Shown here: piece by piece, positions 8,410-56,651 of the stretch
How positions within the stretch are numbered: position 1 is the first letter of the stretch
Layout of the letters: every line of letters begins with the position of its first letter
Source: Longimicrobiales bacterium
Lineage (GTDB): Bacteria; Gemmatimonadota; Gemmatimonadetes; Longimicrobiales; Gaopeijiaceae
DNA: 64,000 bases
Direction: 5' to 3'
Assembly: GCA_965204735.1 (NCBI GenBank)
Contig: OZ242008.1
Span: 1,696,001-1,760,000, forward strand
The notes under the pieces: generated by a model
The model's database searches: none
What the model saw: only the letters and a program-made list of their open reading frames with translations
Told to the model about the DNA's origin: nothing
Made by a program: the position numbers and the translations under genes

Positions 8410-8451
8410 GCACGAGGGCGCAGGGCCGAACCGGAACAGGAGGCGCAAGCG

Positions 8452-12160: not shown

Positions 12161-12242
12161 GGGCCGTCGCCCCGTCGGAGGGCCGTCGCTCTCGTCGCAG
12201 CCGTCGCGCTCATCTCATACAACCTACGCAGGAGGACGACGC

Positions 12243-12863
<621 letters not shown>

Positions 12864-12896
12864 CGCCACTGGGCGCCCCTAGCCGCCCTCGCGCCA

Positions 12897-13544: not shown

Positions 13545-13612
13545 CCGGACGCGCCGAGCAGCCATGACCGAAGCCGCCGCTGGAGCGCGCTCGCTTGCAG
13601 GCGCCGGTCGAA

Positions 13613-13694
13613 CCCGTTGCAAGAGAACGAAAGCTCAACGAACTGGCCCACGCGAAGTTTGGCAAAGCCGGGCCCCGTTGCAAGAGGACGAAAG
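13613..13694 (+). repeat. 21-bp direct repeat (1 mismatch) upstream of a promoter; candidate transcription-factor sites
   Basis: cccgttgcaagag(a/g)acgaaag at 13613 and 13674. Confidence 0.7.
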
Positions 13695-13696
13695 GC

Positions 13697-13725
13697 TTGC
13701 ATTGCGACCGGACGAAACATATGTT
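13697..13725 (+). promoter_or_regulatory. Sigma70-like promoter for the LysM gene
   Basis: TTGCAT-17 bp-TATGTT in an AT-richer intergenic patch. Confidence 0.6.
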
Positions 13726-13751
13726 TAGAGAGCGTCCACGTCGTTCACCTC

Positions 13752-13799
13752 TAAGGGAAGCAGACGCGGGTCCGGTAAGGGAAGCAGACGCGGGTCCGG
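13752..13799 (+). repeat. Perfect 24-bp tandem duplication in the putative 5' leader
   Basis: taagggaagcagacgcgggtccgg x2. Confidence 0.9.
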
Positions 13800-13830
13800 G
13801 GCTCCGGGCCTCCTAGGAAGGGAGCGGAAA

Positions 13831-14619: not shown

Positions 14620-14669
14620 CAGCGCTCCAGCCGGGGCAGAGCGGACCGGCGACGGCTGATCGTCCTGCG

Positions 14670-15623: not shown

Positions 15624-15760
15624 CCTTCGGGCCCAAGCGGCTGACCCCAACCCAAGCGGCTGACCTTCGGGCCCAAGCGGCTGACCCCAACCCAAGCGGC
15701 CGGCCTTCGGGCCCAAGCGGCCGACCCCAATCCCAAGCGGCTGATTTCGGACCTTCGGGC
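15599..15760 (+). repeat. 40-bp higher-order tandem repeat (~4 copies; 19+21-bp subunits)
   Basis: ctgaccccaacccaagcggctgaccttcgggcccaagcgg at 15601 and 15641, a variant at 15681 and a degenerate copy at 15721. Confidence 0.92.
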
Positions 15761-15785
15761 ACGCCCGAAGCGGGACGACCTGTCG

Positions 15786-15813
15786 GAAAAAAAAATTAGT
15801 CCCATTCAGCCAT
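15786..15813 (+). promoter_or_regulatory. A-tract + TTAGTCCCA motif upstream of the pilin operon
   Basis: G-A9-TTAGTCCCA..GCCAT; matches the copy at 5312. Confidence 0.5.
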
Positions 15814-15962
15814 CCCAATGTCCCAACAAGGGTGAGATACTGTCTGTGTCGCGTCGCGGAGTCCCCGGCCCGCGGCCTTCGGGAGCAGCCGTCGGCAGGG
15901 CTTCCCCGGTCGTGAAGCTCGTGGAGCCGACATCATCCATCTCATCACATGGGAGGTACCAA

Positions 15963-16361
15963 GTGGATTACAGACAAGGATTTACGCTCATCGAACTCAT
16001 GATCGTCCTGGTGATCGTAGGCGTCCTCACGGCGATCGCGGTGCCCCAGTTCTCGAGTGCCCGCGAGCGCGCCTACTACGCCGCCGTTCAGTCGGACCTG
16101 AAGAACCTGTCGGTCCAGCAGGAGTTCTACCACGCCGACAACTACGAGTACTCCGCCTCCCTCGCGGACCTGAACTTCGTCGCTTCGGAAGGGGTGACGG
16201 TGACGCCCACGGCCACGGAGACGGGCTGGTCCGCCACGGCCACCCACGAGGCGCTCGCGGACGACGAAGGCTGCGTGATGTACTCCGGCGATGTGACCGA
16301 CAAGCCTTCCATGGGCGACCTGACCGCCTCCGACCCGGGAGTCGTCGAGTGCACCGGGTGA
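15963..16361 (+). CDS. Type IV major pilin (PilA-like)
   Basis: GGAGGT RBS then GTG. Short leader MDYRQG|FTLIELMIVLVIVGVL and a C-terminal Cys pair. Confidence 0.9.
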   Translation: MDYRQGFTLIELMIVLVIVGVLTAIAVPQFSSARERAYYAAVQSDLKNLSVQQEFYHADNYEYSASLADLNFVASEGVTVTPTATETGWSATATHEALADDEGCVMYSGDVTDKPSMGDLTASDPGVVECTG

Positions 16362-16960
16362 TCCGCGCGCTAGGGCCGCCACCGGCGCGTGCTCGAAGGA
16401 CCCCGGCCAGTCGTCGGGTGACCCGCGCGCTAGGGCCGCTGCCGGGCCCAGGCCGATCGGTGCCGGCTCCTCGCCGACCCGAGTCGAGCCTGCCGCGACC
16501 TGCCGCGGCCTCGAGCCTGCCGCGACCCGTCGCGGCCCCTGGGTTCTCGCTGGTGGAGCTCTTGATGGCGCTGGCCTGCGTCGCTGTCCTGACTCCCCCG
16601 TTGCTGGGCTCGGCCGCCAAGCTTCGGGCGGGGTTCCGCCTTCGCCAAGCCCAGGAGGAGGCCGCCCGGCTCTTCGCCCAGGCGCGGTGGACGGCCGTGA
16701 GCGTCGGCGGCGCGGTCGTGGAGCTTGCGGCGGACCCGCCATCGGGGCTGGTGGTGTCGGCGACGGGGGACACGGTGGCGGCCACGCGCTTCGGTGGAAA
16801 GGGCGTGTCCCTTCGCCTCTCCCGAGGCCGGTCCGCGACCCGGCTGCGCTACGGGCCCATGGGCCTGGGAATGGTCTCGAGCCAGACTCTGCGCTTCCGG
16901 GCGGGAGAGAGCGAGCGGTCGGTGGTGGTGTCGTCCCTTGGCCGGGTGAGTAGGCGGTGA
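16358..16960 (+). CDS. Minor pilin (FimT/GspH-like); long repetitive leader, start uncertain
   Basis: G|FSLVELLMALACVAVL; C-terminal VVVSSLGRV. Confidence 0.75.
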   Translation: MIRALGPPPARARRTPASRRVTRALGPLPGPGRSVPAPRRPESSLPRPAAASSLPRPVAAPGFSLVELLMALACVAVLTPPLLGSAAKLRAGFRLRQAQEEAARLFAQARWTAVSVGGAVVELAADPPSGLVVSATGDTVAATRFGGKGVSLRLSRGRSATRLRYGPMGLGMVSSQTLRFRAGESERSVVVSSLGRVSRR

Positions 16961-17316
16961 ACCGGTGCGGCGGCTCCTTCGTGGAGGCGGTGGTGGCCTT
17001 GGCGGTGCTGGGAGTGGGGGTTGCGGCAGTTGCGGGCGTGACGAGCGGGGCGGCGCAGGCGCTGGCTCGAGCCCGGGCGCTCGACGACGCCCACGCCCTG
17101 CTGGACAGCTTCGTCGACTCGGTGGCGGCCGTCCACGGGGCCGGCTCGGGCGGAGGGGCGGACAAGGGGCAGGTCTCCCTGGAGTGGGGCGACCTCTCGT
17201 GGGAAGTTGCTCCGCCCGGGTCGGTCGGGTGGGCAAGGGTGGAGCACCGAGCGCTTCCTTCGCCGGTCGAGGTCGCGTTCGCCTTGCCCGCCGACTCCGG
17301 AAGAACGGTCCCGTGA
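16957..17316 (+). CDS. Minor pilin (PilV-like)
   Basis: Degenerate prepilin site G|GSFVEAVVALAVLGVG; GTGA coupling to the previous gene. Confidence 0.7.
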   Translation: MNRCGGSFVEAVVALAVLGVGVAAVAGVTSGAAQALARARALDDAHALLDSFVDSVAAVHGAGSGGGADKGQVSLEWGDLSWEVAPPGSVGWARVEHRALPSPVEVAFALPADSGRTVP

Positions 17317-18056
17317 ACCGCCAGTCGGGCCGGGGCGTGGCCAGCGGTCCGCGGGGGTCGGGCCAGCGGCGAGCCGGATTCATGCTGGCCGAGGCGGTGG
17401 TGGTCGGCACCCTCCTGCTCCTGGCCGCCCAGGCCGCTTGGTGGACGACGGCGGTGCAGAGCAGGGTGGCGACCGGGGTGGTGGACCGGGCCAGGGCGCT
17501 GGACGAGGCTCGGCTGGTTCGCCACGTGGTGGGATCGGAGGCGAGGAGCGGAAAGGCTGGGCGCGACTGGGAGGTCGCAGGGGGCGAACTGCGCCTGCGC
17601 GCGTTTCGCGGGATCGGCTTCGGCTGCGCCGTCCAGCCGTCGGACGGATGGGGGGTAGCGGCGTGGGGACACCGGAACCCGAACCCCGAGAAGGACTCGG
17701 TCCTGGTGCTGACCGCGGACGGCGCCTGGCAGAGCACGGCGCTGGTTCGCAGGTCGCGGGGCGTTGGGCTCGACTGCGCCGACCTGACGGGGTTCTCGCC
17801 CGAGGTCTGGCACCTGGACCCGGCGCCCTCCGCCCCGGTGGTGGGCGTGTACTTCGAGCGCGGCGCGTACCGCTTCTCCGACGGGGCGCTCCGGTACCGC
17901 CAACGAACTCGATGGCAGCCTCTGACGAGCACCAAGCTGACGGGAGACTCGGCCGCCTTCTCCGGCAGCGGCGACCGGGTAAGCGCCGACCTGGGGACGC
18001 CGAAGCCGAACGCCCCCGCGGTCCAGCGCCGATGGACCGGATGGGGTCGCCGATGA
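17313..18056 (+). CDS. Minor pilin (PilW-like)
   Basis: RRAG|FMLAEAVVVGTLLLL; coupled start. Confidence 0.7.
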   Translation: MNRQSGRGVASGPRGSGQRRAGFMLAEAVVVGTLLLLAAQAAWWTTAVQSRVATGVVDRARALDEARLVRHVVGSEARSGKAGRDWEVAGGELRLRAFRGIGFGCAVQPSDGWGVAAWGHRNPNPEKDSVLVLTADGAWQSTALVRRSRGVGLDCADLTGFSPEVWHLDPAPSAPVVGVYFERGAYRFSDGALRYRQRTRWQPLTSTKLTGDSAAFSGSGDRVSADLGTPKPNAPAVQRRWTGWGRR

Positions 18057-19099
18057 GACGCTGCGTCGTCGACGGTCGGGAGGGCTTTGCCTTGGCCGTG
18101 GTCGTGTTGGCCCTCTTGGTTCTGGCGGGCATCGCCTCCGCGGCCGTGGCCGCGGCGGTGGGGCAAGTTCGCTCCGCCGTCGCGGCGGGGCAGCTCCTGG
18201 CGGCCCGAGCGTCGGCTCGCGCGGGGCTGGAGGCTGCGTTCGCCGCGACGACGGGCCCGAGCGCGGCCTCGGTGGGCGGGGCGGCAGTGGAGCTGGCGTC
18301 GGAAACGTCGGACGACGGGGGTGCGTGGCGGGTGCTGGACCTGCGGATCACGGCCGAGCACCACTTGCTGGTCGGCCAGGCCACGACGGGCCGGGGCGTT
18401 GCGTTCCGCGAGCTTCGGCCGGCGTGGTGGATGGACCCCGAGACGCGGGTGGCGGATCACCGGGCTGTGCTGGAAGGAGCGGAAGCGGTGGTGGCCGCAG
18501 GCGCCCGAACGTCGGCCGACCGCTTGCTGGGAGCGAGGCCCGGAGTCGATGCGTGCGGCGCGAGCAAAGCGCTGGCCGACGCGTTCGCGGGCCGAGTCGT
18601 GCCCACCACGGGGCCGCTTCCTCGCACCGACGAACGGCGGGACCCGCGGAGAACGCCGGGGGACTCGGTGGACGGCGGGGGCCAAGAGGTGGCCATCGGG
18701 CTGCTGCGGGGCGCGATGCTCAGCCGCAGAGCCGGCTCGCGGTTGCCGGTGGGGACCGATTGCCCCGAGTGCTGGAGGGGAGTGGTGGCCGGCGCGGGGA
18801 ACTCGACGGTCACCGGCTCCGGGCGCGGCGTGCTGGTGGTGCAGGGCGACCTCGCGTTCGCGCCGGGGTCGTCCTGGACGGGCCTCGTCGTGGCGTCCGG
18901 GAACGTGGACGTGCAGCGGTCGGCGACGGTCACGGGCCTCGTGCGCGGCGGAGGGAGGGTCGCCGTGGCCGACGGGGCCGTGGTGGACGGCTCGGCCTGC
19001 GCCGCGTTGCGGGCGCTGGAGTCGGCCGGGTCCCTGCTTCGCCCCTTCCCGGTCGCCGGCCTCTCCTGGGCGGCGGCCTTCGCGCCGAGCGGACCGTAG
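18053..19099 (+). CDS. PilX-like minor pilin
   Basis: REG|FALAVVVLALLVL without Glu5 (typical of PilX/GspK); beta-helix-like C-terminus GVLVVQGDL..GLVV. Confidence 0.7.
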   Translation: MRRCVVDGREGFALAVVVLALLVLAGIASAAVAAAVGQVRSAVAAGQLLAARASARAGLEAAFAATTGPSAASVGGAAVELASETSDDGGAWRVLDLRITAEHHLLVGQATTGRGVAFRELRPAWWMDPETRVADHRAVLEGAEAVVAAGARTSADRLLGARPGVDACGASKALADAFAGRVVPTTGPLPRTDERRDPRRTPGDSVDGGGQEVAIGLLRGAMLSRRAGSRLPVGTDCPECWRGVVAGAGNSTVTGSGRGVLVVQGDLAFAPGSSWTGLVVASGNVDVQRSATVTGLVRGGGRVAVADGAVVDGSACAALRALESAGSLLRPFPVAGLSWAAAFAPSGP

Positions 19100-19103
19100 C
19101 GGC

Positions 19104-20102
19104 GTGGGCTGGTTCGGGCGAAGGAGGACCACGGTCGGTCTCGACGTCGGCAGCCGCTGGGCGAAGCTGGTTGAAGTCGACCACGGCGGCGGCCGCCCGG
19201 AGGTGGTCGGCGCGGGCGCCGCGAGAGTGCCCGAAGGCGCCGTCGTCGACGGCGAAGTCGTGGACGCGGACCTCGTGACCGAGTCGGTTCGCGGTCTCGT
19301 TGCCGACGTCGGCGCGCGCGGGCCGGACGTGGTGATCGCGATGGGCGGCCACGACGTCTTCGTCAAGAAGGTGGAGATGAAGCGCGCCAAGCGCTCGGCG
19401 CTTCGCGCGGCAATCGAGCGGGAGGCCGAGCGCCTCGTGCCCTTCGACATCGACAGCGTGGAGCTCGACCACCACACGCTGGGCGCCGCGGGAGACGGCC
19501 GTCGCGTCGATGTGCTCCTCGTGGCGGCGAAGCGGGAGGCGGTCGCCGCACGGGTCGACGTGGTGGCCCGGGCCGGACTGAATCCGGTCCTGGTCGACGT
19601 GGAGGCGTTCGCGCTGCACAACGCCTTCACGTGCAACTACGGGCGGAGCGCCGAAGACGCCGTTGCCCTGGTCGACATTCGACGCGAGAGCGCCACCGTG
19701 AACGTGCTGGAAGGCGCCGCCCCGCTCCTGGCTGGAGACGTTCCGATCGGCCCGAGCGCGGCGTGGGCTGCCGAAGGGGACGAGGCGCCGCCCGCCGGCG
19801 GCCGGACCTCCGCAGTGGAAGAAGCGGCGGAAGCGCTTGCGGCAGCGGTCGAGCGGGCTTCGGCGCTCCTGGCCGCCCGACGGTCTCCCACCGGACTGGG
19901 CCGAGTCTTCTTGAGCGGAAGCGGCGCGTGCGTTCCCGGCTTGGCCGAGAGCCTCGCCCGTCGCGTCGGAGTGGAGACGCGTCTCGCGAACCCCTTCGAG
20001 CGAGTGCCGGTGCGTTCCGGCGCCCGGTGCCGGGGAATCTCCCTGAACCGTTCGGCGCCGATGCTGCTGTTGGCGCTGGGACTCGCCCTGCGAACCCCGT
20101 AA
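19104..20102 (+). CDS. pilM: Type IV pilus assembly protein PilM
   Basis: VGLDVGS, VLLVAAKRE, VDVEAFALHN, FLSGSGA, ANPF, LALGLALR. Confidence 0.9.
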   Translation: MGWFGRRRTTVGLDVGSRWAKLVEVDHGGGRPEVVGAGAARVPEGAVVDGEVVDADLVTESVRGLVADVGARGPDVVIAMGGHDVFVKKVEMKRAKRSALRAAIEREAERLVPFDIDSVELDHHTLGAAGDGRRVDVLLVAAKREAVAARVDVVARAGLNPVLVDVEAFALHNAFTCNYGRSAEDAVALVDIRRESATVNVLEGAAPLLAGDVPIGPSAAWAAEGDEAPPAGGRTSAVEEAAEALAAAVERASALLAARRSPTGLGRVFLSGSGACVPGLAESLARRVGVETRLANPFERVPVRSGARCRGISLNRSAPMLLLALGLALRTP

Positions 20103-20138
20103 GCGCGCCTTCGGGAGGCGCATGGAGAAGCGGAAGAA

Positions 20139-20798
20139 ATGATCGAAGTCGACCTGCTGGGTTCCCAGGGCAAGGCGGGGCCACGGACTCCGAGGCCGGC
20201 TGCGGCCGGCCGGTCCGGAGACATGCGGGCTTGGCGGGGTCGAAGACTCCGGGAGCTGTGGACCGACGGGTGGGTTCTCGCCTCTGCGGCAGCAGCGGCG
20301 GCGGGCGTGGGCTGGGCCGCCTACATGGCGGCGTCGGCAAGCGCCATGGAGTCGCGAGCCGTCGCGGCCCTGGAACGGGCTCTCGAGGATTCGGTCCGAC
20401 ACGCCGAGTCGCTGAAGAAGATGAAGACGCTGGAGGAGCGCCGGGACGCAATCGCCGGAAGGGCGGCCGTCATCGAGGCCCTCGACGCCCAGCGCTACGC
20501 GTGGCCCCGCATCATGAGCGAAGTCGCCCGCGCCCTGCCGGCAGATGCTTGGCTGGTCCACCTGGGCCAGACCTCGGGCGGACCCGCGCGGATTCGCATC
20601 GAGGGAATGGCGACGGACAACCTTGCCGTCGCCCGCTTCTGGAACGGCTTGGAGTCGTCCCGCGAGATCGGAGCCGTCCACCTGGTGGCGCTCGAGCACG
20701 CAACGGAAGAACGGCCCGGCGGACCCGCGGACGTGTACTACTTCGTGCTGGAAGCGGCCCGAGCGGAGCTGGAGCTCCCGGCGGGGTACGGATCGTGA
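20139..20798 (+). CDS. pilN: Type IV pilus assembly protein PilN
   Basis: MIEVDLL (INLL-like), TM, coiled coil, LPADAWL; follows pilM. Confidence 0.85.
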   Translation: MIEVDLLGSQGKAGPRTPRPAAAGRSGDMRAWRGRRLRELWTDGWVLASAAAAAAGVGWAAYMAASASAMESRAVAALERALEDSVRHAESLKKMKTLEERRDAIAGRAAVIEALDAQRYAWPRIMSEVARALPADAWLVHLGQTSGGPARIRIEGMATDNLAVARFWNGLESSREIGAVHLVALEHATEERPGGPADVYYFVLEAARAELELPAGYGS

Positions 20799-21361
20799 GG
20801 CTGTTGCCCGGGGAGCCTAGGCGCCGGCGCGCCCTTCTGACGGCCGCCCTTGCCCTCTGCGCGTCCTACTCCGTCCACTACTACGTCTACGCTCCTGCGA
20901 AGCGCGATGCCGACGAGGTGCGGGCCCGCCTGGAGGAGTTGCGGGCGATGAACCGCCGGGCCGACGCCGCGACGGCGGAAGGAGCCGCGTCGCTGGATCG
21001 GCGGCTGGCGCTGTACGAACGCCACATCTCCGACTTGGAGAAGCTGATCCCGGCCAACGAGGAAGTGCCGGCCCTTCTTGCCGCCGTGTCGGCGGAGGAG
21101 CGCCTGGCCGGCGTGGAGGTCGTCGCGATGCGCCCCGAGCCGCCGGAGCCCGGCGAGTACTACCAGCGACGCAGCTACGAGCTCCGCGTCGAGGGCGGCT
21201 ACCACCAAGTGGGCGCCTTCATGACGGCCATCGCGTCGCTGGAAAGGATCGTCGCCCCCACGGACGTGTCGATCGCGCCGGCAGGGTCCCCCGTTCCCGG
21301 AAGCGGCCCAGGACTGGTCGTGGCGAGCTTCCGGATTCGCACCTACTCGAGAGGAGGATGA
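20795..21361 (+). CDS. pilO: Type IV pilus assembly protein PilO
   Basis: TM + coiled coil, LIPANEEVPALL, GGYHQVGAFM, LERIV. Confidence 0.88.
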   Translation: MRLLPGEPRRRRALLTAALALCASYSVHYYVYAPAKRDADEVRARLEELRAMNRRADAATAEGAASLDRRLALYERHISDLEKLIPANEEVPALLAAVSAEERLAGVEVVAMRPEPPEPGEYYQRRSYELRVEGGYHQVGAFMTAIASLERIVAPTDVSIAPAGSPVPGSGPGLVVASFRIRTYSRGG

Positions 21362-21362
21362 G

Positions 21363-21827
21363 ATGAGGTCGACGGCGGCAACCGCGCTGCTCGCGACGTG
21401 CACGCTGGGGTCGGTCCCTGAACGAGGCCAGGGACAGGACGCTTCCGGGCGCTTGGCCTTCGAACGTGAGTTCTTCGTCTACCCGGCTTCGGCCCGGCGA
21501 GACCCGTTCCGGCCTCCTGCCGACTCCGGCGGCGCCCTCCCCGTGGTGGAGGACCTGTCGCTCTTGGGGGTCGTCCATGCCCGGGAGCCGGGACGGAGCG
21601 TCGTGCTCCTGGCCGCCACGGGCGAGCACGCCAGCGCCGGCGCCGGCCCCGCCTCCGGGAGGACGCTCCGGCTTCGCCCCGGCGGCCGAGCCGGAAAGGT
21701 GCGCATTGTGGAGATCGGCCTTGATCGGGTCCTGGTTGCGGTGGAGGAGCCCGACGGACGGGTGCGGTCCGCCGAGATCGAAGTGCCGCGAAGGCGACCG
21801 GCGGGAATGCAGGGAGAGGGGTCGTGA
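21363..21827 (+). CDS. PilP-like protein
   Basis: RRDPF motif; lies between pilO and pilQ. Confidence 0.7.
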   Translation: MRSTAATALLATCTLGSVPERGQGQDASGRLAFEREFFVYPASARRDPFRPPADSGGALPVVEDLSLLGVVHAREPGRSVVLLAATGEHASAGAGPASGRTLRLRPGGRAGKVRIVEIGLDRVLVAVEEPDGRVRSAEIEVPRRRPAGMQGEGS

Positions 21828-23188
21828 GGCGCCTTCTGGTCGTTGCGGCTGCTTCGGCCGTCTCGATCGGCTCTCCCTCCGGGGCGCCGGGACAGTCGGC
21901 CGAGCCTCCGATCTCGGTGTTCTTCGCTTCCGCTCCGATCCAGGACGTGCTCTTCGCCTTCGCAGAGTTCGCCGACCGATCGATCGTTGCCGGTCCAGGC
22001 GTCCAGGGGGCGGTGTCGGCCGAGATTCGCGACCAGCCGTGGGACGTGGCGTTCGAGGCACTGCTGGACGCACATGGGCTCGTGGCCCGGGAGCTGGAGA
22101 GCGGGATCATTCGCGTGGACGACGCCCGCAGCCTCTTCGACCACGAGGCGGTGGAGCCGCTGAAGACCAGGGCGTTCCGGGCGAGCTACGCGGACGCGGC
22201 CGAACTCCTGGACCCGGTGGCTGGACTGTTGAGCGAGAGAGGGCGGGCGTCGGTCGGGTCCGCCGTCAACGCCGTCGTCGTGACCGACGTCGCACGGGTG
22301 CTGGAGGCGGCGCAGCGCTTGGTGGAGGAACTGGACGCGCCGGGGCTCCAAGTGGACATCGCCGCCAAGATCGTCTTCGTGAACAGGACCGGACTGGAAG
22401 GCTTCGGCGTCACCTACGACCTCAAGGACCTGGGCGGCAACCAGCTCAACCTCCTGACGCCCGGCGTCGCCGACAAGAACGGCGACGGCGTGATCGAGCT
22501 TCCTGGCGATCTAGTCCCGCGCGGAACCAACGTCGTCTCCTTGGGGGGCGCCTCGCTGGCCGCCCTGGGCAACGCGCTGGACCGGGTGGCGAACCCCACC
22601 CTGACGCTGCTCGGGTCGCTGGTGATGGGGCGGAGCACCCTGGTCGGCTTCATCGAAGCCCTGAAGTCGGTGCAGCTCACCGAAGTGGAGGCCCGGCCTT
22701 CGGTTCGGGTCCTCGACAACCACACCGCCAAGATCGTGGTCGGGGAGGAGACTCCCGTGCGGGTCGTGGACGCGGGCGCCCTGAGCGGCGCGGACGGCGG
22801 CGAGGGAAGCCGCAACTCGGGGCCGGTGGCCACGGTGGACTACAAGGAGACCGGCGTGATCCTGGAAGTCACGCCCCGGGTCGCGAGCGACGACGAAGTC
22901 CTGCTGGACTTGGCGGCGGAGCGCTCGTCCGCCGATCTGGGACCGTCGGACGTGGGCTTGGTCTTCCGACGCCAGAAGGCCGAGTCCAAGGTCCTGGCAA
23001 GGGACGGCCAGACGGTGGTGATCGGGGGGCTCACCGTAGAGGAGACCAGCCACGGGCGCTCCGGCATCCCGCTGCTCATGGACATTCCTCTTCTCGGCGC
23101 CCTCTTCCGCACGACGAAGGAAATCCGACTCCAGCGCGACCTGCTGATCCTCGTGACTCCCACCATCGTCCGTCCCGCCGTGCAGTAG
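21824..23188 (+). CDS. pilQ: Type IV pilus secretin PilQ
   Basis: QPWDVAF, QVDIAAKIV, TGVILEVTPRV, GQTVVIGGL, GIPLLMDIPLLGALFR, LLILVTPTIV. Confidence 0.92.
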   Translation: MRRLLVVAAASAVSIGSPSGAPGQSAEPPISVFFASAPIQDVLFAFAEFADRSIVAGPGVQGAVSAEIRDQPWDVAFEALLDAHGLVARELESGIIRVDDARSLFDHEAVEPLKTRAFRASYADAAELLDPVAGLLSERGRASVGSAVNAVVVTDVARVLEAAQRLVEELDAPGLQVDIAAKIVFVNRTGLEGFGVTYDLKDLGGNQLNLLTPGVADKNGDGVIELPGDLVPRGTNVVSLGGASLAALGNALDRVANPTLTLLGSLVMGRSTLVGFIEALKSVQLTEVEARPSVRVLDNHTAKIVVGEETPVRVVDAGALSGADGGEGSRNSGPVATVDYKETGVILEVTPRVASDDEVLLDLAAERSSADLGPSDVGLVFRRQKAESKVLARDGQTVVIGGLTVEETSHGRSGIPLLMDIPLLGALFRTTKEIRLQRDLLILVTPTIVRPAVQ

Positions 23189-46448: not shown

Positions 46449-46913
46449 TCAGCCGGGTTGCGAGGCAATCGTCGCCCGGCGCTGGAGTGCCCGTATCACA
46501 TGAGGCATCGCGAGAAGCCTCAGGTAGCGGTCGTTGGCGTGATTCTGGATGACGAGACCGTTCTCCCATCGCCCAATGGTTGCCTCGCCAAGGCCGGTGA
46601 CGTGGGCGAAGGCGGCCCTCGTCATGCCGTATCCGCGTCGGATCGACCGAATGTCGGCGGGCGACAACACGCCTAGGTGCCGACAGATCGCTTCGTGGCG
46701 GAGCCGTTCGCCGTGCTGGTCGATGTACTGGAGGTCGCAGGCCGCACACGTGCGGACGGGCACGTACACGGGAATCCGAGACTTGAGGTCGCCGGATCCC
46801 CACGTCATCACGTCGTCGACCCATCGGGTGACGACTTCTTCGCCGTCGCACTGGGGACAGGGATCGGCGACGGTGGCGGCCGAGCCACGGGGCGCTGGCG
46901 CGGTGGATTCCAT
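46449..46913 (-). CDS. MqsA-family antitoxin-like protein (Zn ribbon + Cro/XRE HTH)
   Basis: CPQC...CAAC, then IRSIRRGYGMTRAAFAHVTGLGEATIGRWENG. Confidence 0.85.
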   Translation of the reverse strand: MESTAPAPRGSAATVADPCPQCDGEEVVTRWVDDVMTWGSGDLKSRIPVYVPVRTCAACDLQYIDQHGERLRHEAICRHLGVLSPADIRSIRRGYGMTRAAFAHVTGLGEATIGRWENGLVIQNHANDRYLRLLAMPHVIRALQRRATIASQPG

Positions 46914-47023
46914 GATTCGTCTATCACTCCGTCTGGCCAGCACGGCCAACTGATGCCGGGTGGCGGCGTCGATTCCCAACAGTTCGGGTCAAGGGCCGAG
47001 TGGATGGCTCCCGCCCGCCGCGC

Positions 47024-48704: not shown

Positions 48705-49232
48705 CTACGGAGCCTGCTGCCTCCGCATCACCAGGTGCTCCCCGGCTCCGTCCAGGGTCAGCAGCGCCACGTCGCCCGATGCGAGGTTGATCTCGCCGTG
48801 CCAGACGTAGCCGGTCGGGACGCCGCCCGGGGTCTCCGCGTCTTCGGCCAGCACGGCTTCGAAGCGCACCGACAGCGCTACCACTCCGGCCTCCGCGGAC
48901 AGGTCGCGGAGGACATGGACGGGTCGGTCGCCTCGCATCCCCTTCGGGAAGAGGGTGTCGCGGACGACGGGCCGGCCGTCGACGGCCACATCCAAGGCGA
49001 AGGGCGCCAAGGCCCGCGTGCACTCCCGGGGGCTCCGCATGTGGACGGGAAGGGTTGCCAGCTCCTCGTCGGTGCGAGTTCGGCACGCCTCGACGGGCAC
49101 GCCCGCAACTCGCCACGACAGTCGGACGATCGGGTCGTCGGCGCCGAAGTCCATCGGCGCGCGGGACAGCCATGCGACGCCGCCGGTCATCGCAATGGCC
49201 AGGAGGGCGGCCCCGGCTCGCCTAGCGGTCAA
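48705..49232 (-). CDS. Membrane-anchored hypothetical protein, translationally coupled to the cytochrome b fusion
   Basis: TTG overlaps the upstream TGA. N-terminal TM; CRTRTDEELATLPVHMRSPREC. Confidence 0.7.
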   Translation of the reverse strand: MTARRAGAALLAIAMTGGVAWLSRAPMDFGADDPIVRLSWRVAGVPVEACRTRTDEELATLPVHMRSPRECTRALAPFALDVAVDGRPVVRDTLFPKGMRGDRPVHVLRDLSAEAGVVALSVRFEAVLAEDAETPGGVPTGYVWHGEINLASGDVALLTLDGAGEHLVMRRQQAP

Positions 49233-51088
49233 GACGCGGCTCCGTCGGCTTCGCACTCCGCACCCACCTCGAACTGCCGTTCCGCCCGCGCGGCGTCCAT
49301 CGCCCGCACGCTCGACCAGAACCGCGCCACCCTGTCCCGCAGCACCCTGGCCTCGCCCGCCCCGGCGTAGACCACGTCGATCCGGCGGCGGTCCACCCGC
49401 TCCTGGAGCTCGGCTTCGCGCCCGTTGTGGACGCGCTCGTCGAACCACTTGACGCCTTCGCGGCTTCGGCAGTCCCTCGGAGGGCAAGCTGCCACGAGCA
49501 CGCCTCCGGCACCGGCCCGGACCAGGTACTCGATCACGGAGGTGTGAAGGCTGCCCACGCATCCCACGGGGAAGATCCGCGCCGCGGGGACGGCCGCGGA
49601 CGCAGCCGATCCGGCGGGTCCGTCGACGTCGGCGAGTCCCAGCGGGCGGAGCGACTCCAGCGAGCCGACCGACCCTGCCGCTCCGTGCATGCATCCCACG
49701 ATCACCACGTCGCTGGGACCGGGCCGCGCCTCGGCCAGGAACTCCCGCGTTCGGGCCAGCTGGTCCCGCCCCGTCCGTCCGTCGGGCCCCACGCCCATGG
49801 GCGCGCACGACCCTGCGCAGACGCCGCAGCTCACGCACTTGGCCGTATCCACCCAGCCGACCAAGCCGTCGCGTCCGTCGTCCCGTTCCACCATGGAGAT
49901 GGCTTCGTAGGGACAGTCCTGGAAGCACTGCTCGCAACCGGTGCAGTGGCGCGGGTTCACCCACGAAGGCGAGGGCGCCTTCTCCGCCCGCGGCTTGGTC
50001 AGGAACGGAACCAGAAGGGCCGCTGCGACGATCGATCCGCCCGCGACCCAGACCCAGCCGGCCGCCATGGTCCGGGTCGCAGGCAACCAGAACCCGTAGA
50101 CCCAGTCGGCAGGCACGACCGAGGGAAGCTTCAGCAAGTCCGCCTTCGGGCCCAGCGGAGGCGGCCACGCCACGGCTGCAATGGCCAGGCAGCCGACCGC
50201 GCCCCACAATAGCCGCTTGGGCGGAAGCAGCTGCGCTCGCGCCAGCCGCGACACGTGCACCCAGAGAAAGAGGGCGATCCCCACGGGCGCCGCGATGTGG
50301 GCGAACAAGTTCATGAAGAAGAACGCGTCCGGCAGGGGCGCCTCGCCGGTGAACGCCCGGCCCAGGGGCTCGGAGAAGACGGGCAGCGCGTCCAGGATGC
50401 GGGCGCCCTCGGCGGCGAGAACTTGGCCGTGGACGTCCCACGCCATGACGTAGCCGGTCCAGCCGCAGACGAAGAGGATGCCCAGGAGCACGCCCCCCGA
50501 CACCCATGCCAGCGCCCGCGGACCCCAGGTGCGGCGCTGGGCGAACATCCGAAAGCCGTGGAGGACCGCCGCCACGACCGCCAGGGCGGACGCGTAGCGA
50601 TGCATCCCCCGAATCCACCGCCCGCCCCACCACTGCGCGTCGATCGCCGCCACCGACTCGTGGGGCGCGCCGATCCGGTAGAAGAGGAGCAGATACGCCC
50701 CCGTCGCCAGGAGGACGCCGAAGCAAGCCACCACCAGCGCGCCCGAGTGGTAGAGCGGGTTGAAGCGCCAGGTGTACAGCGCGTTGAACGCGGCGTCGAG
50801 ACGGGCGAGCGCTCGGAGGCCGGGGTTCGCGGCAGCCGGGGAGCTGCCCGAAGCCTGAGGGCCGCCCGCCGGTGGGTGGTTGCTCGCCGCCCGGGAGCCG
50901 CCCTCCGGTGGGTGGTCGCCCGCCGCCCGGGAGCCGCCCGGCGGTGGGTGGTCGCCCGCCGCCTGAGAGCGGTCCCCCGCCTGAACGCCGCCGGCCGCCT
51001 GATAATCGCTCGCCGCCAAGCGGGACGCGGCCTCCCGCCCGGATCGCCCGCCACGCTTCCCACCTTGCCCCTCCCCAGCAATATTCAT
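49229..51088 (-). CDS. Fusion: cytochrome b(b6)-like domain + 2x[4Fe-4S] ferredoxin + MvhD/FlpD-like Fe-S domain
   Basis: Two His pairs spaced 14 apart (MHRY..VLHG; AHIA..VHVS), TGYVMAWD, PADWVY; CTGCEQCFQDCP and CVSCGVCAGSC; VGC / GCVGS / ACPPRDC. Confidence 0.85.
   Translation of the reverse strand: MNIAGEGQGGKRGGRSGREAASRLAASDYQAAGGVQAGDRSQAAGDHPPPGGSRAAGDHPPEGGSRAASNHPPAGGPQASGSSPAAANPGLRALARLDAAFNALYTWRFNPLYHSGALVVACFGVLLATGAYLLLFYRIGAPHESVAAIDAQWWGGRWIRGMHRYASALAVVAAVLHGFRMFAQRRTWGPRALAWVSGGVLLGILFVCGWTGYVMAWDVHGQVLAAEGARILDALPVFSEPLGRAFTGEAPLPDAFFFMNLFAHIAAPVGIALFLWVHVSRLARAQLLPPKRLLWGAVGCLAIAAVAWPPPLGPKADLLKLPSVVPADWVYGFWLPATRTMAAGWVWVAGGSIVAAALLVPFLTKPRAEKAPSPSWVNPRHCTGCEQCFQDCPYEAISMVERDDGRDGLVGWVDTAKCVSCGVCAGSCAPMGVGPDGRTGRDQLARTREFLAEARPGPSDVVIVGCMHGAAGSVGSLESLRPLGLADVDGPAGSAASAAVPAARIFPVGCVGSLHTSVIEYLVRAGAGGVLVAACPPRDCRSREGVKWFDERVHNGREAELQERVDRRRIDVVYAGAGEARVLRDRVARFWSSVRAMDAARAERQFEVGAECEADGAAS
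50861..50965 (-). repeat. 36-bp tandem repeat (~3 copies) in the N-terminal extension of the cytochrome b fusion
   Basis: AAGDHPPPGGSR / AAGDHPPEGGSR / AASNHPPAGG. Confidence 0.8.
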
Positions 51089-51100
51089 ATCATCATGATA
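51088..51100. promoter_or_regulatory. AT-rich inverted repeat between divergent operons; candidate Rrf2 operator
   Basis: TATCAT-C-ATGATA. Confidence 0.5.
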
Positions 51101-51126
51101 ATAGGACGAATGCCGCAGGCAACCCC

Positions 51127-51567
51127 GTGATCCTCTCCCAGACCGCCGTGTACGCCCTTCGAGCGATGCTTCACTTGGCCGAGCGCCCCGACGACCAGCC
51201 GGTGCCGGTGGGCGACGTCGCGGCCGCGCTGGACGTTCCGCGCAACTACCTGTCCAAGATCCTCCACGTCCTTGCCCGGCGCGGCCTGCTCCGGTCCGTC
51301 CGTGGACCCGGCGGCGGATTCAGCCTCGCCCGTCCGCCCAGCCGAACGACGCTGCTGGAGGTGGCCGCCCACTTCGACGACATGGACCGCGAGCGCTGCC
51401 TGCTGGGCCGCCCCGAGTGCCGGGACGACGATCCGTGCCCGGCCCACGGCCAATGGAAGGAAGTCGCCGCCGCCCTGCACGCCTTCTTCCGCAACACCAC
51501 CATCGCCGACCTCGCCCGCGGCGCGACGAAGACTCGCCCGCGCCACCAACAGGAGGCCGACTCGTGA
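51127..51567 (+). CDS. Rrf2 family Fe-S transcriptional regulator
   Basis: YALRAMLHLA, YLSKIL, SVRGPGGGFSLAR, C-x6-C-x5-C-x2-H. Confidence 0.92.
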   Translation: MILSQTAVYALRAMLHLAERPDDQPVPVGDVAAALDVPRNYLSKILHVLARRGLLRSVRGPGGGFSLARPPSRTTLLEVAAHFDDMDRERCLLGRPECRDDDPCPAHGQWKEVAAALHAFFRNTTIADLARGATKTRPRHQQEADS

Positions 51568-51743
51568 CCGACCACGACGACACTGGCGCAAAGGCGCCGG
51601 ACCCCGCCGACGTTCCCTTCCTCCAGCGGCTCTACGACCGGCCCTTCCTGCTGCTGGCGCTGGGCTTGGCCGTCATGCTGATCCTCTTCACCGGCTGGGG
51701 GCTGTGGGAGGTGCTGACGCTCCCCGAAGCCACCCTGCCGTAA
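51564..51743 (+). CDS. Small single-TM subunit (subunit IIa-like) of the heme-copper enzyme
   Basis: AGGAGG RBS, GTGA coupling; QRLYDRPFLLLALG..TGWGLWE. Confidence 0.7.
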   Translation: MTDHDDTGAKAPDPADVPFLQRLYDRPFLLLALGLAVMLILFTGWGLWEVLTLPEATLP

Positions 51744-51756
51744 GGAGCTGGCGCAG

Positions 51757-52347
51757 ATGTACCAAACGGGAATGACCCCGCCGCAAGGCGTCTGGTGGAA
51801 GCCGGCGCACAAGTCCGAGAAGGTCTGGGCCACGGTGGCCTTCGTCTGGTGCATGGTGCTCTTCGCCATGATGCCGGTCTGGCACCTTCGCGGAGGCCAG
51901 AACCCCTCCGGAATCCGCGCCAAGGTGGATCCGACCGCCTTCCAGGCCAGGGTCCAGGAGTTCATCCGCGACTACCAGGTGGGCACCGACAACGGCTTTC
52001 CGGTCGTGGCGCCGCCGCCGGGCAGCGACGTGTACATGATCGGCCAGATGTGGGCGTGGCTGCCGGTGCTTCAGCTCGAGAAGGACGTCGAGTACACTCT
52101 GCACCTCTCGTCGCTGGACGTGAACCACGGCTTCAACCTGTATCCGTTCAACGTCAACTTTCAGGTGGTTCCAGGATACGACTACGGACTGCGCATCGTG
52201 CCGACCGAGGCCGGCGAGTACGGCGTGGTCTGCAACGAGTTCTGCGGCGTCGGCCATCACTTGATGGTGGGGAAGGTGATCGTCACCGACTCGGAGACGA
52301 ACGTCGCCTCCCGACCGGCCGCCGGGGCGGAAGGCGGCGCCAGATGA
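51757..52347 (+). CDS. Heme-copper oxidoreductase subunit II (single TM, CuA)
   Basis: DVNHGF and the CuA motif CNEFCGVGHHLM. Confidence 0.93.
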   Translation: MYQTGMTPPQGVWWKPAHKSEKVWATVAFVWCMVLFAMMPVWHLRGGQNPSGIRAKVDPTAFQARVQEFIRDYQVGTDNGFPVVAPPPGSDVYMIGQMWAWLPVLQLEKDVEYTLHLSSLDVNHGFNLYPFNVNFQVVPGYDYGLRIVPTEAGEYGVVCNEFCGVGHHLMVGKVIVTDSETNVASRPAAGAEGGAR

Positions 52348-54062
52348 ACCCGTTTCGCAAGTGTCCGACCACCGGGCTGAGCGTGCACAAGGACGCCGAC
52401 GCCCTGATCAAGGCCAACGCGGTGGCAGCCACGGTGGCGCTGCTGATCGGCGGCGTCACGGCGGTGCTCGTGCTGCTGACCCGGTGGCAGGCCGTTCATC
52501 TCCTGAGCGACGTGTGGTTCTACCGCATCCTCACCGTCCACGGGATGAACATGCTGATCTTCTTCATCCTGTTCTTCGAGATGGCGGTCCTCTACTTCGC
52601 GTCCGCCGTGCTGCTCAACTCCCGCGTGGCCGCGCCGAAGACGGGGTGGGTCGCGTTCGCTCTCATGCTGGCGGGCGCCGCAATGGTGGAGTGGGCCATG
52701 TTCACGGGCAGGGCGGACGTCCTGTTCACCTCCTACGTGCCCCTGAAGGCGCATTGGAGCTTCTACCTGGGCGTGATCCTCTTCGCCGTGGGCGCAATCT
52801 TCGTGACCACGATCTTCTTCGCGACCCTGGTGGTCGCCAAGCGGGAGAAGACGTATTCGGGGTCGGTGCCCCTGGTGACCTTCGGGGCGATGACGGCGGC
52901 GATCATCGCGGCGATCACGCTCCTCCACGGCGCGGCGATCTACATCCCCACCTTCCTCTGGTCGCTGGGCCTCATGGAGGTGGACCCGCAGGTGTACCGA
53001 CTGGTCTGGTGGGGGCTGGGCCACTCGTCGCAACAGATCAACGTCGCCGCCATGGTGGCGATCTGGTACCTGCTGGGCGGGCTCACCGTCGGCGCCGTGG
53101 TGGTGAACGAGAAGATCAGCCGCACGGCCTTCGTCCTGTACATCCTGTTCATTTCCATGGCGTCGGCGCACCACCTGCTGGTGGACCCGGGGTTCGGCCC
53201 GTCGTGGAAGATCGTGAACACGTCGTACTTCATGTACATGGCGGTGCTGGCGTCGATGCTCCACGGCTTCACCGTGCCGGCGGGCGTCGAGCTGGGGATG
53301 CGCCTTCGGGGCTTCACGCAAGGGTTGTTCGGCTGGCTTCGGCGCGCGCCCTGGCACGACCCGGGCTTCTCGGCGCTGTGCCTCTCCGTCGTGGTGTTCG
53401 GATTCGTGGGCGGAATCACGGGCGTGACCTTCGGCACCGAGCAGATCAACATCATCGCGCACAACACCTTGCGAATTCCCGGCCACTTCCACGCGACCGT
53501 CGTCAGCGGCACCGCGATGGCCTTCATGGGCGTCACCTACTACGTGATTCCGCTGATCTTCCGGAAGAAGATCGCCTTCTACGGCTTGGCGAAGTGGCAG
53601 CCGTGGGTGTTCAGCGCCGGAATGCTCGTGTTCTCTATGGCGATGACCTTCGCCGGAACCTTCGGCGTTCCGCGCAGGCACTGGGACGTCACCTTCTCCG
53701 GCGCGCCCTTCGGCGTCGAGTACTCCGCCGCCGTGGACTTGCTGTTCGCGGTCATGGCTGCCGGAGGGCTGGTCGCGGCAGTGGGCGGCGCCATGTACAT
53801 CGTGGTCACCGTGTCGTCGGTGTTCTTCGGCAAGCCGCTGGGCGACGAAACGACGGAGTCGGCCCTTGCGGGCGCCGTGCCGCCCGGTCTCTACACGCGC
53901 CCGTTCACGGAGCTTCCCGCCCGGACGCCGAAGCTGAAGGAACACGGCAAGCTGGGGACGATGCCGGGCACGATGATCCTCGTCGGCGTGTTCCTGCTCG
54001 CCTTCGTCGTCTACTACTTCGCCAACTGGAAGCTCCTGTCGGCGATGTGGCAGATCGGGTGA
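52344..54062 (+). CDS. Heme-copper superfamily subunit I, B-family-derived; probable eNOR-type nitric oxide reductase
   Basis: All six His ligands present (TVHG, GH, SAHH, GHFH). Helix VI reads GHSSQQIN rather than GHPxVY. Confidence 0.8.
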   Translation: MNPFRKCPTTGLSVHKDADALIKANAVAATVALLIGGVTAVLVLLTRWQAVHLLSDVWFYRILTVHGMNMLIFFILFFEMAVLYFASAVLLNSRVAAPKTGWVAFALMLAGAAMVEWAMFTGRADVLFTSYVPLKAHWSFYLGVILFAVGAIFVTTIFFATLVVAKREKTYSGSVPLVTFGAMTAAIIAAITLLHGAAIYIPTFLWSLGLMEVDPQVYRLVWWGLGHSSQQINVAAMVAIWYLLGGLTVGAVVVNEKISRTAFVLYILFISMASAHHLLVDPGFGPSWKIVNTSYFMYMAVLASMLHGFTVPAGVELGMRLRGFTQGLFGWLRRAPWHDPGFSALCLSVVVFGFVGGITGVTFGTEQINIIAHNTLRIPGHFHATVVSGTAMAFMGVTYYVIPLIFRKKIAFYGLAKWQPWVFSAGMLVFSMAMTFAGTFGVPRRHWDVTFSGAPFGVEYSAAVDLLFAVMAAGGLVAAVGGAMYIVVTVSSVFFGKPLGDETTESALAGAVPPGLYTRPFTELPARTPKLKEHGKLGTMPGTMILVGVFLLAFVVYYFANWKLLSAMWQIG

Positions 54063-55045
54063 CGGCGGAACTCGGGCCTCGCGGGGCGCCGAAGATCCTC
54101 CGACCCCAGGACAGATGGCCCGTCGGGGCGGCCGCGTTCATCCTGGCCGTTTCCGCCGCGTGGTGGGGATTCGCGCTCTTCGCGGTTCCCGGCGCCCCCG
54201 AGTGGCTCGACCGCGCCCGCGCCGTCTGCTTCAACGTCGACGAGAGCGGCCTGCCCGACGCGAAGGGCTGGCTGCTGCTGATCGGACAGCCGCCGGCGAT
54301 GCTGCTGGCGCTGTACGCTGGGTGGAGCGGCCAAGTGCGCGACACTTGCCGCCACCTTGTCCGCTCTCCCGCCCGACGACGCCTGATCGTGGGCGCAGGT
54401 CTGGCGGTTGCGGCCTTTCTGGCGACCGCCGCGGCCCAGGTGGCCAGCCTTCGCCTCCCGCCCCCGGCGCTGGCGGCCGGCTTCGGAGCGACCGGCGACG
54501 AACTCCTGCCCGAGACCTACCCCCGCCTCGACCGCCCGTGGCCCGGGACCGAAGGGCTGGTGGACCAGCGCGGCGCCGCCTTCTCGCTGGAGAGCCTCGA
54601 AGGCCGACCGGCGTTCGTCACCTTCGCGTTCGGCCACTGCGCCACGATCTGCCCCATCGTGGTGCGCAACTCGCTGGAAGCGCGGCGGTCCGTGGCGTCC
54701 CAGCGGGATGCCGATGTCGAGACGGCGGTCGTGGTGTTCACGCTGGACCCTTGGCGCGACACGCCCAGCCGCTTGCCGGTCCTTGCGGAGCGCTATGGGC
54801 TCGACCCCGCGCGGGACTTCTTGGTCGGCGGCGCCCCGGAAGCCGTGACGCCCGTGTTGGACGCTTTCGCCATGGCCCACCAGCGCGACCCCCGAACCGG
54901 CGACGTCGTTCACCCGCCGCTGGTCTACGTGGCGGAGAGCGACGGGACGTTGGCCTACGCATCCACGGGCGCGACGGTCCATCTTGTGCAGCTGGCGGGC
55001 AGGACCGCCGGCCGAACGAACGACGCGACCCCGATAGGCCGCTGA
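54059..55045 (+). CDS. SCO/SenC copper chaperone with N-terminal 3-TM domain
   Basis: FGHCATICP (CxxxC), LDPWRDTP, VVHPP. Confidence 0.88.
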   Translation: MTAELGPRGAPKILRPQDRWPVGAAAFILAVSAAWWGFALFAVPGAPEWLDRARAVCFNVDESGLPDAKGWLLLIGQPPAMLLALYAGWSGQVRDTCRHLVRSPARRRLIVGAGLAVAAFLATAAAQVASLRLPPPALAAGFGATGDELLPETYPRLDRPWPGTEGLVDQRGAAFSLESLEGRPAFVTFAFGHCATICPIVVRNSLEARRSVASQRDADVETAVVVFTLDPWRDTPSRLPVLAERYGLDPARDFLVGGAPEAVTPVLDAFAMAHQRDPRTGDVVHPPLVYVAESDGTLAYASTGATVHLVQLAGRTAGRTNDATPIGR

Positions 55046-56147: not shown

Positions 56148-56651
56148 ATGAACATGAAGAAGATGGCGGCCGCCGGCCTGCTGGCGACGGGGGTCGCGGT
56201 GGTGCTGGTCGCCGGAAGCAGGTCCACGGACGAGGGGGCGGCGAGCTACTCGGCCCAGCCAGCGGCCGCCGGCGACGGTCCTGCGGTCCACGTCTACAAG
56301 ACGGCGACGTGCGGGTGCTGCGCGAAGTGGGTCGACCACCTGCGGGAGGCCGGCTTCGCCGTGACGGTCGAGGACACGAGGGAGTTGATGGCCGTCAAGC
56401 GGCGCGAGGGAGTCCCGACGGACCTCAGCTCGTGCCACACGGCGCTGGTGAACGGCTACGTCGTGGAGGGACACGTGCCCGCGTCGGTGGTCCACGCCTT
56501 CCTGGAGGAGGCCCCTGAAGCGCGGGGCCTCGCAGTCCCTGGAATGCCGATCGGATCGCCGGGGATGGAGGGCCGGCACGCGGAAGCCTACGACGTGTTC
56601 GCCTTCGACGCGGACGGCGAGCGGACCGTCTTCCGCCACGTCGAGCCGTAG
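56148..56651 (+). CDS. DUF411 (CopG-like) exported metal-binding protein
   Basis: TCGCCAKW, SCHTA, EGHVP, VPGMPIGSPGME. Confidence 0.9.
   Translation: MNMKKMAAAGLLATGVAVVLVAGSRSTDEGAASYSAQPAAAGDGPAVHVYKTATCGCCAKWVDHLREAGFAVTVEDTRELMAVKRREGVPTDLSSCHTALVNGYVVEGHVPASVVHAFLEEAPEARGLAVPGMPIGSPGMEGRHAEAYDVFAFDADGERTVFRHVEP

Follow-up and report, generated by a model that had tools for sequence, protein, structure and literature searches.

The only eNOR-family nitric oxide (NO) reductase to have been assayed is that of Rhodothermus marinus DSM 4252 which, according to the available text of PMC11214002, reduced NO at a kcat of 0.68 per s and did not reduce O2. Dataset S1 of that paper gives Q245, Y256, S318 and H321 of the R. 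marinus enzyme, together with E21 of its subunit II, as markers, and the accessible part of PMC8756737 (Schwartz et al.) uses the same Gln as the diagnostic residue of eNOR. Here, a comparable operon is described from a bacterium of the order Longimicrobiales (assembly GCA_965204735.1). It lies within a 64,000-nucleotide stretch of contig OZ242008.1 (positions 1,696,001 to 1,760,000), called the window, to which positions refer unless a genome coordinate is given. An original prediction, made from the letters of the sequence, had proposed that the heme-copper subunit I encoded there was probably an NO reductase and not an oxygen reductase, with Gln as the eNOR signature. Both sources cited above agree on that signature, and the Gln marker, the metal ligands, the presence of a CuA subunit and the phylogenetic position all supported the predicted enzyme type. 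The protein probably reduces NO to nitrous oxide (N2O), and not O2, and is proposed to be an inducible sink for NO originating outside the cell.

The gene and its diagnostic motif were delimited as follows (aa, amino acids):

52344-54062 (+): predicted eNOR subunit I, 572 aa, identified by open reading frame (ORF) call, Pfam COX1 match, alignment to the ba3 oxidase of Thermus thermophilus, tree and fold search
53022-53042 (+): helix VI motif HSSQQIN, identified by translation, the ba3 alignment and relatives; the Gln231 codon is 53034-53036

Translation of the ORF gave H227-S-S-Q-Q231-I-N for bases 53022-53042, as first read, and HSSQQ was paired with HPIVY in the alignment to T. thermophilus ba3; the replacement of the cross-link Tyr by Gln (Q231) was thereby confirmed. 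The other His ligands were intact, again as claimed: H66 and H383 for the low-spin heme, H381 for the high-spin heme, and H227, H276 and H277 for the metal. All six, along with Q231 and the channel residues Y242, S304 and H307, were invariant in 80 of 80 related loci, these being the best 80 of 570 confirmed matches, to which all counts out of 80 refer. In 121 proteins (P0001-P0121), the helix VI His was followed by SSQQ in 118, ASQQ in one and SAQQ in one, while the last was a mis-hit of the regular expression; Gln231 is therefore neither a sequencing error nor a private mutation. Public records name close relatives 'cytochrome c oxidase subunit 1' or 'cbb3-type', which bears out the expectation that automated pipelines would label the gene a cytochrome c oxidase. 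The AlphaFold model of subunit I was of low confidence (mean predicted local distance difference test score, pLDDT, 64.5, and about 42-55 over residues 241-330, which include the active site), and resembled the ba3 fold (Foldseek E = 9.5e-13). A sequence search of the PDB returned 19 matches, all of them B-family oxidases and none eNOR-like.

Membership of the eNOR family was supported in three ways. First, Q231, Y242, S304 and H307 correspond to Q245, Y256, S318 and H321 of R. marinus at a constant offset of 14, and E21 of subunit II has the same number in both. Second, a phylogeny was estimated with FastTree from 45 sequences, comprising the protein itself, 15 loci, 28 representatives of at least 430 aa among the 150 listed, and the genome's own A-family enzyme as root, with R. 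marinus, sNOR, bNOR, gNOR and nNOR references outside the sample. All 15 sequences with Gln, plus two that were garbled at that site, formed one clade (support 1.0), apart from the Tyr-bearing B-family enzymes; the window protein thus grouped with the Gln clade and not with true O2 reductases, a placement that the original prediction had named as its check. The clade included haloarchaeal, Thermus, Thermomicrobium and Defluviimonas proteins, the Thermus member having a His/Lys low-spin heme variant of the kind mentioned for eNOR in the available text of PMC11214002. Third, in the rows consulted of Dataset S8 of that paper, genomes of the genera Bin94, J028 and SZUA-318 are scored ENOR=1, and loci matched to these genera by record name (L052, L023 and L032, respectively) were 76, 80 and 83% identical to subunit I. 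Given the marker residues, the Gln clade and the Dataset S8 genera, assignment of the protein to eNOR from its sequence is close to certain. The enzyme type is therefore ordinary, since Dataset S8 already lists the family, including members from this order of Gemmatimonadota.

The features of other enzyme classes were also compared. The helix VI His-x3-Tyr cross-link motif of A- and B-family O2 reductases is absent, with Gln231 in its place. A C-family (cbb3) enzyme would be expected to have cytochrome c subunits, but a CuA subunit II lies upstream and no heme c motif was found in the genes of the cluster. In Dataset S1, sNOR and bNOR have Asn at the Tyr site, as against Q231. According to the available text of PMC11214002, nNOR has Glu there and a His/Met low-spin heme, compared with Q231 and H383 here; while gNOR has a metal His replaced by Asp and a subunit II lacking CuA ligands, compared with a full set of His and a complete CuA motif.

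Several observations were made incidentally. Four proteins (P0247, P0249, P0251 and P0267), two of them archaeal by name, branch beside eNOR, retaining the helix VI Tyr but having Gln at His+3, a helix VII Tyr and the channel His; they appear to be intermediates between B-family oxidases and eNOR. A His/Lys-type eNOR on a Thermus thermophilus plasmid (L118:8860-14385) has as neighbours an Rrf2 gene, a DUF542 gene and a multicopper protein, and was found on 10 Thermus plasmid records. In the ENOR sheet of Dataset S8, as far as that sheet was available, the order column does not line up with those for family and genome (Longimicrobiales standing beside Gallionellaceae); use of the dataset was restricted to the sheet 1 rows for Longimicrobiales.

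Subunit I is part of a conserved cluster, whose other members are:

48705-49232 (-): orf175, a membrane-anchored beta-sandwich protein of about 175 aa, its likely start overlapping the stop of the cytochrome b fusion
49229-51088 (-): fusion of a di-heme cytochrome b, two [4Fe-4S] clusters and an MvhD/FlpD domain; conserved part about 49229-50821, start uncertain
51065-51122 (no strand assigned): two overlapping divergent sigma70-like promoters (two found, 0.0 expected)
51127-51567 (+): Rrf2-family regulator with a C-x6/7-C-x5-C-x2-H motif, a predicted Fe-S sensor (match in 55 of 80 loci)
51564-51743 (+): orf59, a 59-aa protein with a single membrane helix (match in 77 of 80 loci)
51757-52347 (+): eNOR subunit II, 196 aa, with CuA motif H124/C159/E161/C163/H167/M170 and E21 (match in 79 of 80 loci)
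54059-55045 (+): SCO1/SenC copper chaperone with an extra N-terminal membrane domain (match in 75 of 80 loci)

The conserved order was orf175 and the fusion on the minus strand, followed by rrf2, orf59, subunit II, subunit I and sco. Orf175 and the fusion were matched in 67 and 75 loci respectively, and subunit I in all 80; part of the misses reflect contig ends. On a Defluviimonas plasmid the small ORF, both subunits, SCO, the fusion and orf175 all run in one direction. The CuA motif was present in 85 of 86 subunit II hits, and the SCO protein likely loads CuA. Orf59 had no match in Pfam or NCBIfam and is likely a small third subunit, by analogy with subunit IIa of ba3. Recent horizontal transfer of the cluster was not supported, the G+C proportion at third codon positions being 0.88-0.94 for its genes against a genome median of 0.90. 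Close to the cluster, at 56148-56651 (+), there is a CopG-like DUF411 protein, possibly concerned with copper handling, which was also found near the cluster in 3 of 80 loci.

The Rrf2 protein passed the superfamily cut-off (119 versus 73.3 bits) and its three Cys and one His were kept in 55 of 55 hits. It was rejected as an NsrR (46.5 bits against a cut-off of 182) and also fell below the IscR cut-off. The -10 boxes of the two promoters form a palindrome, TATCAT-C-ATGATA (51088-51100), within a conserved 25-bp motif (51080-51104). A profile of this motif was built from 47 loci where rrf2 is in place. Scores above 14 bits were obtained in 47 of 47 training loci (a circular result), in six of the seven loci where rrf2 lies at another point of the locus, and in 8 of 20 loci lacking rrf2. 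The genome contained a single strong site (42 bits), and the second-best separate site reached 24.6 bits. These features fit a predicted local Rrf2 operator, with part of the conservation due to the promoter itself. The runner-up site (G000:C1:3464273) has no called gene within 400 bases. The ATG of the fusion at 51088 is just downstream of the minus-strand -10 box, such that its transcript could be leaderless, and the frame upstream of the cytochrome b domain (50870-51030, minus strand) contains several imperfect repeats of about 11 residues.

In the fusion protein, four heme His, eight ferredoxin Cys and four Cys of the MvhD domain each had a frequency of 1.00 in 119 homologues. Its Qo-position motif is degenerate (PADWVY), with Trp in 14 of 69 and Asp in 60 of 69, and no Rieske gene was present within the cluster. 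The accessible part of PMC4122944 (Kao and Hunte 2014) describes this architecture as the 'PDWF-FeS' cytochrome b clade, while the available text of bioRxiv 10.64898/2026.01.22.701106 places cytochrome b-Fe-S genes in the eNOR operon of Ferrigenium. Turneriella and Alicycliphilus, named for the PDWF-FeS clade in PMC4122944, also appear in the eNOR reference list (PMC11214002 Dataset S4), in the portions of these sources that were available. Among 61 genomes of the order, the fusion gene was present in 21 of 21 with eNOR and in 0 of 40 without, a contrast that adjacency partly explains. By comparison with cytochrome b topology, its Fe-S domains would face the cytoplasm, which suggests that the fusion is a transmembrane wire.

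Its putative partner, orf175, has four residues (C50, H64, M65 and C71) that were invariant in 61 sequences. Modelling (pLDDT 94) predicted a membrane helix and a beta-sandwich, with the Cys on two strands that flank the His-Met loop. There was no match to orf175 in Pfam; its Atlas clusters were unnamed, apart from one lead at 0.80 in which 33% of members carried FlpD; and a fold search produced generic beta-sandwich matches only (best Z 6.8, rmsd 3.5, 94 residues aligned).

The genome from which the window derives (G000; one contig, 98.15% complete) encodes two heme-copper enzymes, these being an A-family oxidase with HPEVY and the eNOR of the window, along with Rieske/cytochrome b and alternative-complex-III-like genes. 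Profile searches of the genome found no match to nirK, nirS, nosZ, NrfA, Nar/Nap, NO synthase, Hcp, globin or flavodiiron proteins. Models for nirK, cytochrome d1, NrfA and NosZ gave weak hits, which were attributed to multicopper oxidases, beta-propellers, a TPR multiheme protein and CuA domains. Heme A synthase (ctaA) occurs only at 208442-209377 of the genome, with ctaB at 3684010. Hence, it was correctly noted at the outset that neither a nitrite reductase nor a heme A synthase gene lies in the window, and the wider search then recommended (nirK/nirS, nosZ, ctaA/ctaB) returned ctaA and ctaB alone. The further suggestion, of a hidden capacity to convert NO to N2O, stands in part: in the absence of nir or nos matches it is reduced to a single predicted step, and the genome is not that of a denitrifier.

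Three features of the genome were recorded alongside these searches. An 870-aa, 8-heme cytochrome with TPR repeats is encoded near ctaA (G000:C1:212512-215124), and a mono-heme cytochrome is paired with a 5-heme cytochrome of 534 aa at G000:C1:3360917-3363653. At G000:C1:1376992-1378263 (-), a molybdopterin enzyme match contains one in-frame TGA and is likely a selenocysteine formate dehydrogenase. In addition, the available rows of Dataset S8 sheet 1 give napAB=1 for Bin94, and no NapA exceeded the cut-off in G000.

The distribution of nitrite reductases was compared among relatives. In the 61 genomes, with nirK hits below the cut-off left out, nirK or nirS occurred in 13 of 21 eNOR-positive and 9 of 40 eNOR-negative genomes (Fisher p = 0.004, although related genomes are not independent), and all six genomes with nirS were eNOR-positive. 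This co-occurrence supports NO as the substrate. Within the genus of the window genome, nir and nosZ were lacking in 4 of 4 genomes. A second set, overlapping the first, consisted of the genomes of 50 of the 80 loci, with Gemmatimonadota titles, and was divided into clades on the eNOR tree. Here, a nir match was found in 0 of 5 genomes of the window clade, in 0 of 17 tested (of 18) of the Bin94 clade, and in 20 of 28 others. Clade II nosZ was found in 0 of 22 genomes of these two nir-less clades, compared with two of three controls. Similarly, the available part of Dataset S8 of PMC11214002 lists five Bin94 species with eNOR and without nirK, nirS or nosZ. The ratio of nonsynonymous to synonymous substitution rates (dN/dS) for eNOR was 0.03-0.14 in 12 of 12 pairs within the two clades, which indicated purifying selection.

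Four sponge-metagenome runs from one study contained 80-87% of the DNA words, and two marine-metagenome runs contained 94%; no RNA run was among the sequencing runs listed, small-share runs being left out. Records of the Bin94 clade other than bin94 itself are presumably of sponge origin. The accessible text of PMC5649159 identifies bin94 as a symbiont of the sponge Aplysina aerophoba. There are, then, two separate eNOR clades without nitrite reductase, each with evidence of a sponge habitat for some of its members. Available parts of two further sources indicate that one sponge converts arginine to NO (10.1101/2020.08.06.240770) and that a sponge metaproteome contained NirK and Nitrospira proteins (PMC6081418). 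A search of titles and abstracts, mostly without subscription papers, found no paper linking eNOR to sponge symbionts.

The observed motif, family placement, gene order, purifying selection, co-inheritance of the accessory genes and missing matches to nir, nos, NO synthase, hcp, globin and flavodiiron genes were combined in the reading given above, of an inducible sink for NO from outside the cell; the source is placed outside because no known NO-making enzyme was matched in the genome. By analogy with R. marinus and general heme-copper chemistry, electrons would pass from a periplasmic cytochrome c through CuA and the low-spin heme (H66/H383) to the high-spin heme and its His-bound metal, where two NO would be converted to N2O and water. 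Protons would be drawn from the cytoplasm through E21 of subunit II, S304, H307, Y242 and Q231, and the reaction is therefore predicted to be electrogenic. The anatomy of the cluster suggests the remaining steps: the Fe-S Rrf2 protein would hold the two divergent promoters repressed, releasing them when NO or a redox signal acts on its cluster; SCO would load copper; the cytochrome b-Fe-S fusion would form a transmembrane wire from a cytoplasmic reductant; and the Cys/His/Met protein, orf175, may be its periplasmic contact, with the pair activating, maturing or feeding eNOR. The NO may be supplied by a host NO synthase or by neighbouring cells. The likely benefit is to shield the cell's only O2 reductase from NO and, as there is no nosZ match, N2O would be released.

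Some evidence weighs against this reading. Eight of the 21 eNOR genomes gave no nir match, which fits an outside source of NO but also another substrate. Eight of the 28 eNOR genomes outside the two clades also lacked a nir match, and so nir absence is not special to those clades; moreover, the 50-genome counts came from genomes of unstated completeness, several being single-chromosome records. The likeness to R. marinus was established by residue numbers and a published genome table, and not by aligning its sequence, while the kcat of 0.68 per s comes from the one eNOR assayed. The 8-heme and 5-heme cytochromes belong to no clear family, which leaves a small chance of an unrecognised internal source of NO. 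Lastly, there is an invariant Tyr on helix VII (Y266), whose location the model, with its low confidence around the active site, does not settle.

The same chemistry might instead serve energy conservation, with NO from sponge nitrifiers and partial denitrifiers being respired at low oxygen, energy being conserved through the K-like channel and the cytochrome b-Fe-S fusion acting as a dedicated electron supply. The invariance of the channel residues and the linkage of the redox module to eNOR (21 of 21 versus 0 of 40 genomes) favour this, as do the NirK and Nitrospira proteins of the sponge metaproteome (PMC6081418, available text), and a CuA enzyme with a multi-gene redox module seems costly for mere detoxification. 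However, the sole assayed eNOR turns over slowly and, the accessible text of PMC11214002 gives no measurement of electrogenicity for any eNOR, while genomes with Nor alone, 5% of assemblies, are generally interpreted as detoxifiers (Pold et al. 2025, PMC12569097, available text). Respiration of NO, which is compatible with an NO sink, was considered rather unlikely as the principal role.

The enzyme could also be an unusual O2 reductase or scavenger, in which Tyr266 compensates for the lost helix VI Tyr, in the manner of the migrated Tyr of C-family enzymes. In favour of this, Y266 was present in all 80 related loci and, among full-length sequences of the Gln clade, in each one intact at this site, the subunit I gene is retained in genomes without an NO source, and heme A synthesis requires O2 (PMC11214002, available text). 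Yet Y266 is shared with the Tyr-bearing sisters (P0247, P0249, P0251, P0267 and others); it is thus older than the loss of the helix VI Tyr and did not arise as a replacement. The C-family cross-link Tyr is approximately six residues before the His pair; Y266 is 10 residues before it, while Ile270 occupies the C-family position, one turn away. The available text of Murali et al. (PMC11214002) reports finding no migrated Tyr in these NOR families, nor any reduction of O2 by the R. marinus enzyme, and the window genome has a separate, normal A-family oxidase. An O2-reducing role is very unlikely on this evidence.

An unrecognised internal source of NO, such as a multiheme cytochrome or a multicopper protein, would make eNOR one step of a non-canonical, short denitrification. 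The 870-aa 8-heme TPR protein, the 534-aa 5-heme protein and two multicopper proteins provide candidates, but the multicopper proteins score as three-domain oxidases resembling CueO (153 and 164 bits, compared with 40 and 36 for NirK against a cut-off of 296), and a weak c552 stretch is the sole match of the multiheme proteins to nitrite reductase models. None is close to the eNOR cluster, whose operator motif has one strong site in the genome, and this explanation is highly improbable. A last alternative, that the cluster is the decaying remnant of a denitrification pathway since lost, as missing nir and nos matches in both clades might imply, is scarcely credible given intact frames, invariant ligands, dN/dS of 0.03-0.14, and retention of the accessory genes and operator.

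Taken by itself, the enzyme call corrects a mis-annotation within a published family. Sponge Gemmatimonadota listed as having a second cytochrome oxidase would, on the NO-sink reading, be NO consumers and producers of N2O without an N2O sink. The available text of a survey of Gemmatimonadota (PMC10581226) had already suggested, from the presence of norB, that marine and host-associated members produce N2O. In at least one sponge, NO acts as a signal in development. A broader proposal is offered tentatively, and is more doubtful than not: two sponge-dwelling Longimicrobiales lineages may have lost nitrite reductase while keeping eNOR as their only sink for NO from the host or from nitrifiers, driven by a Rieske-free cytochrome b-Fe-S wire with a new His/Met periplasmic adaptor. 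If true, this would represent an overlooked source of N2O and a possible damper of host NO signalling, and the wire and its adaptor would constitute a type of respiratory module that has yet to be characterised. What is added here to a known family is modest, namely the lack of nir in more than one clade, the redox module linked to eNOR, and the operator; the cytochrome b-Fe-S-MvhD protein, its small partner and the single-site operator offer targets for the study of eNOR activation, electron supply and regulation.

Elsewhere in the window, a run of genes at 6197-23185 (+) resembles type IV pilus or competence components, judging from the starts of the proteins. A small ORF at 46449-46979 (-) has two CxxC pairs and a helix-turn-helix-like C-terminus, and is one that we take to resemble an MqsA-type antitoxin.

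Compared with known systems, the locus is most readily related to the eNOR of R. marinus DSM 4252, with which it shares Gln for Tyr, six His ligands, the Y/S/H channel residues, the spacing of the subunit II Glu and a CuA subunit II directly upstream of subunit I. It differs in that R. marinus carries out complete aerobic denitrification, having NapA, NirS, NirK and NosZ, to which the window genome has no match, and in that ctaA and ctaB lie outside the operon. A modified heme a (heme As) in both sites is a trait of the family; the window genome encodes ctaA and ctaB away from the cluster. The ba3 oxidase of T. thermophilus (PDB 3S8F, 1EHK) is the nearest solved sequence (E about 1e-50), having the same fold, a CuA subunit II and an analogous K-channel; it differs by HPIVY in place of HSSQQ, and hence the cross-link Tyr, by a channel Thr in place of His307, and by an overall identity of approximately 25-30%. 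As in NsrR-type control of NO sinks, a three-Cys Rrf2 protein stands beside a putative NO-removing enzyme, but the palindrome of the predicted operator differs from the NsrR box, and the regulator scores 46.5 of the 182 bits demanded of NsrR. At the level of the genome, the combination of an NO reductase with neither nir nor nosZ is that of the Nor-only detoxifying genotypes, as presented in the accessible part of PMC12569097. The fusion of cytochrome b with 4Fe-4S and MvhD-like domains, in a cluster without Rieske, is common to the PDWF-FeS clade and the Ferrigenium genes, so far as the available texts describe them; the window version differs in its degenerate Qo motif and in having no FAD/NADH-binding paralogue in the cluster and, whereas the Ferrigenium genes belong to the eNOR operon, the fusion gene here is transcribed divergently from eNOR, outside its operon.

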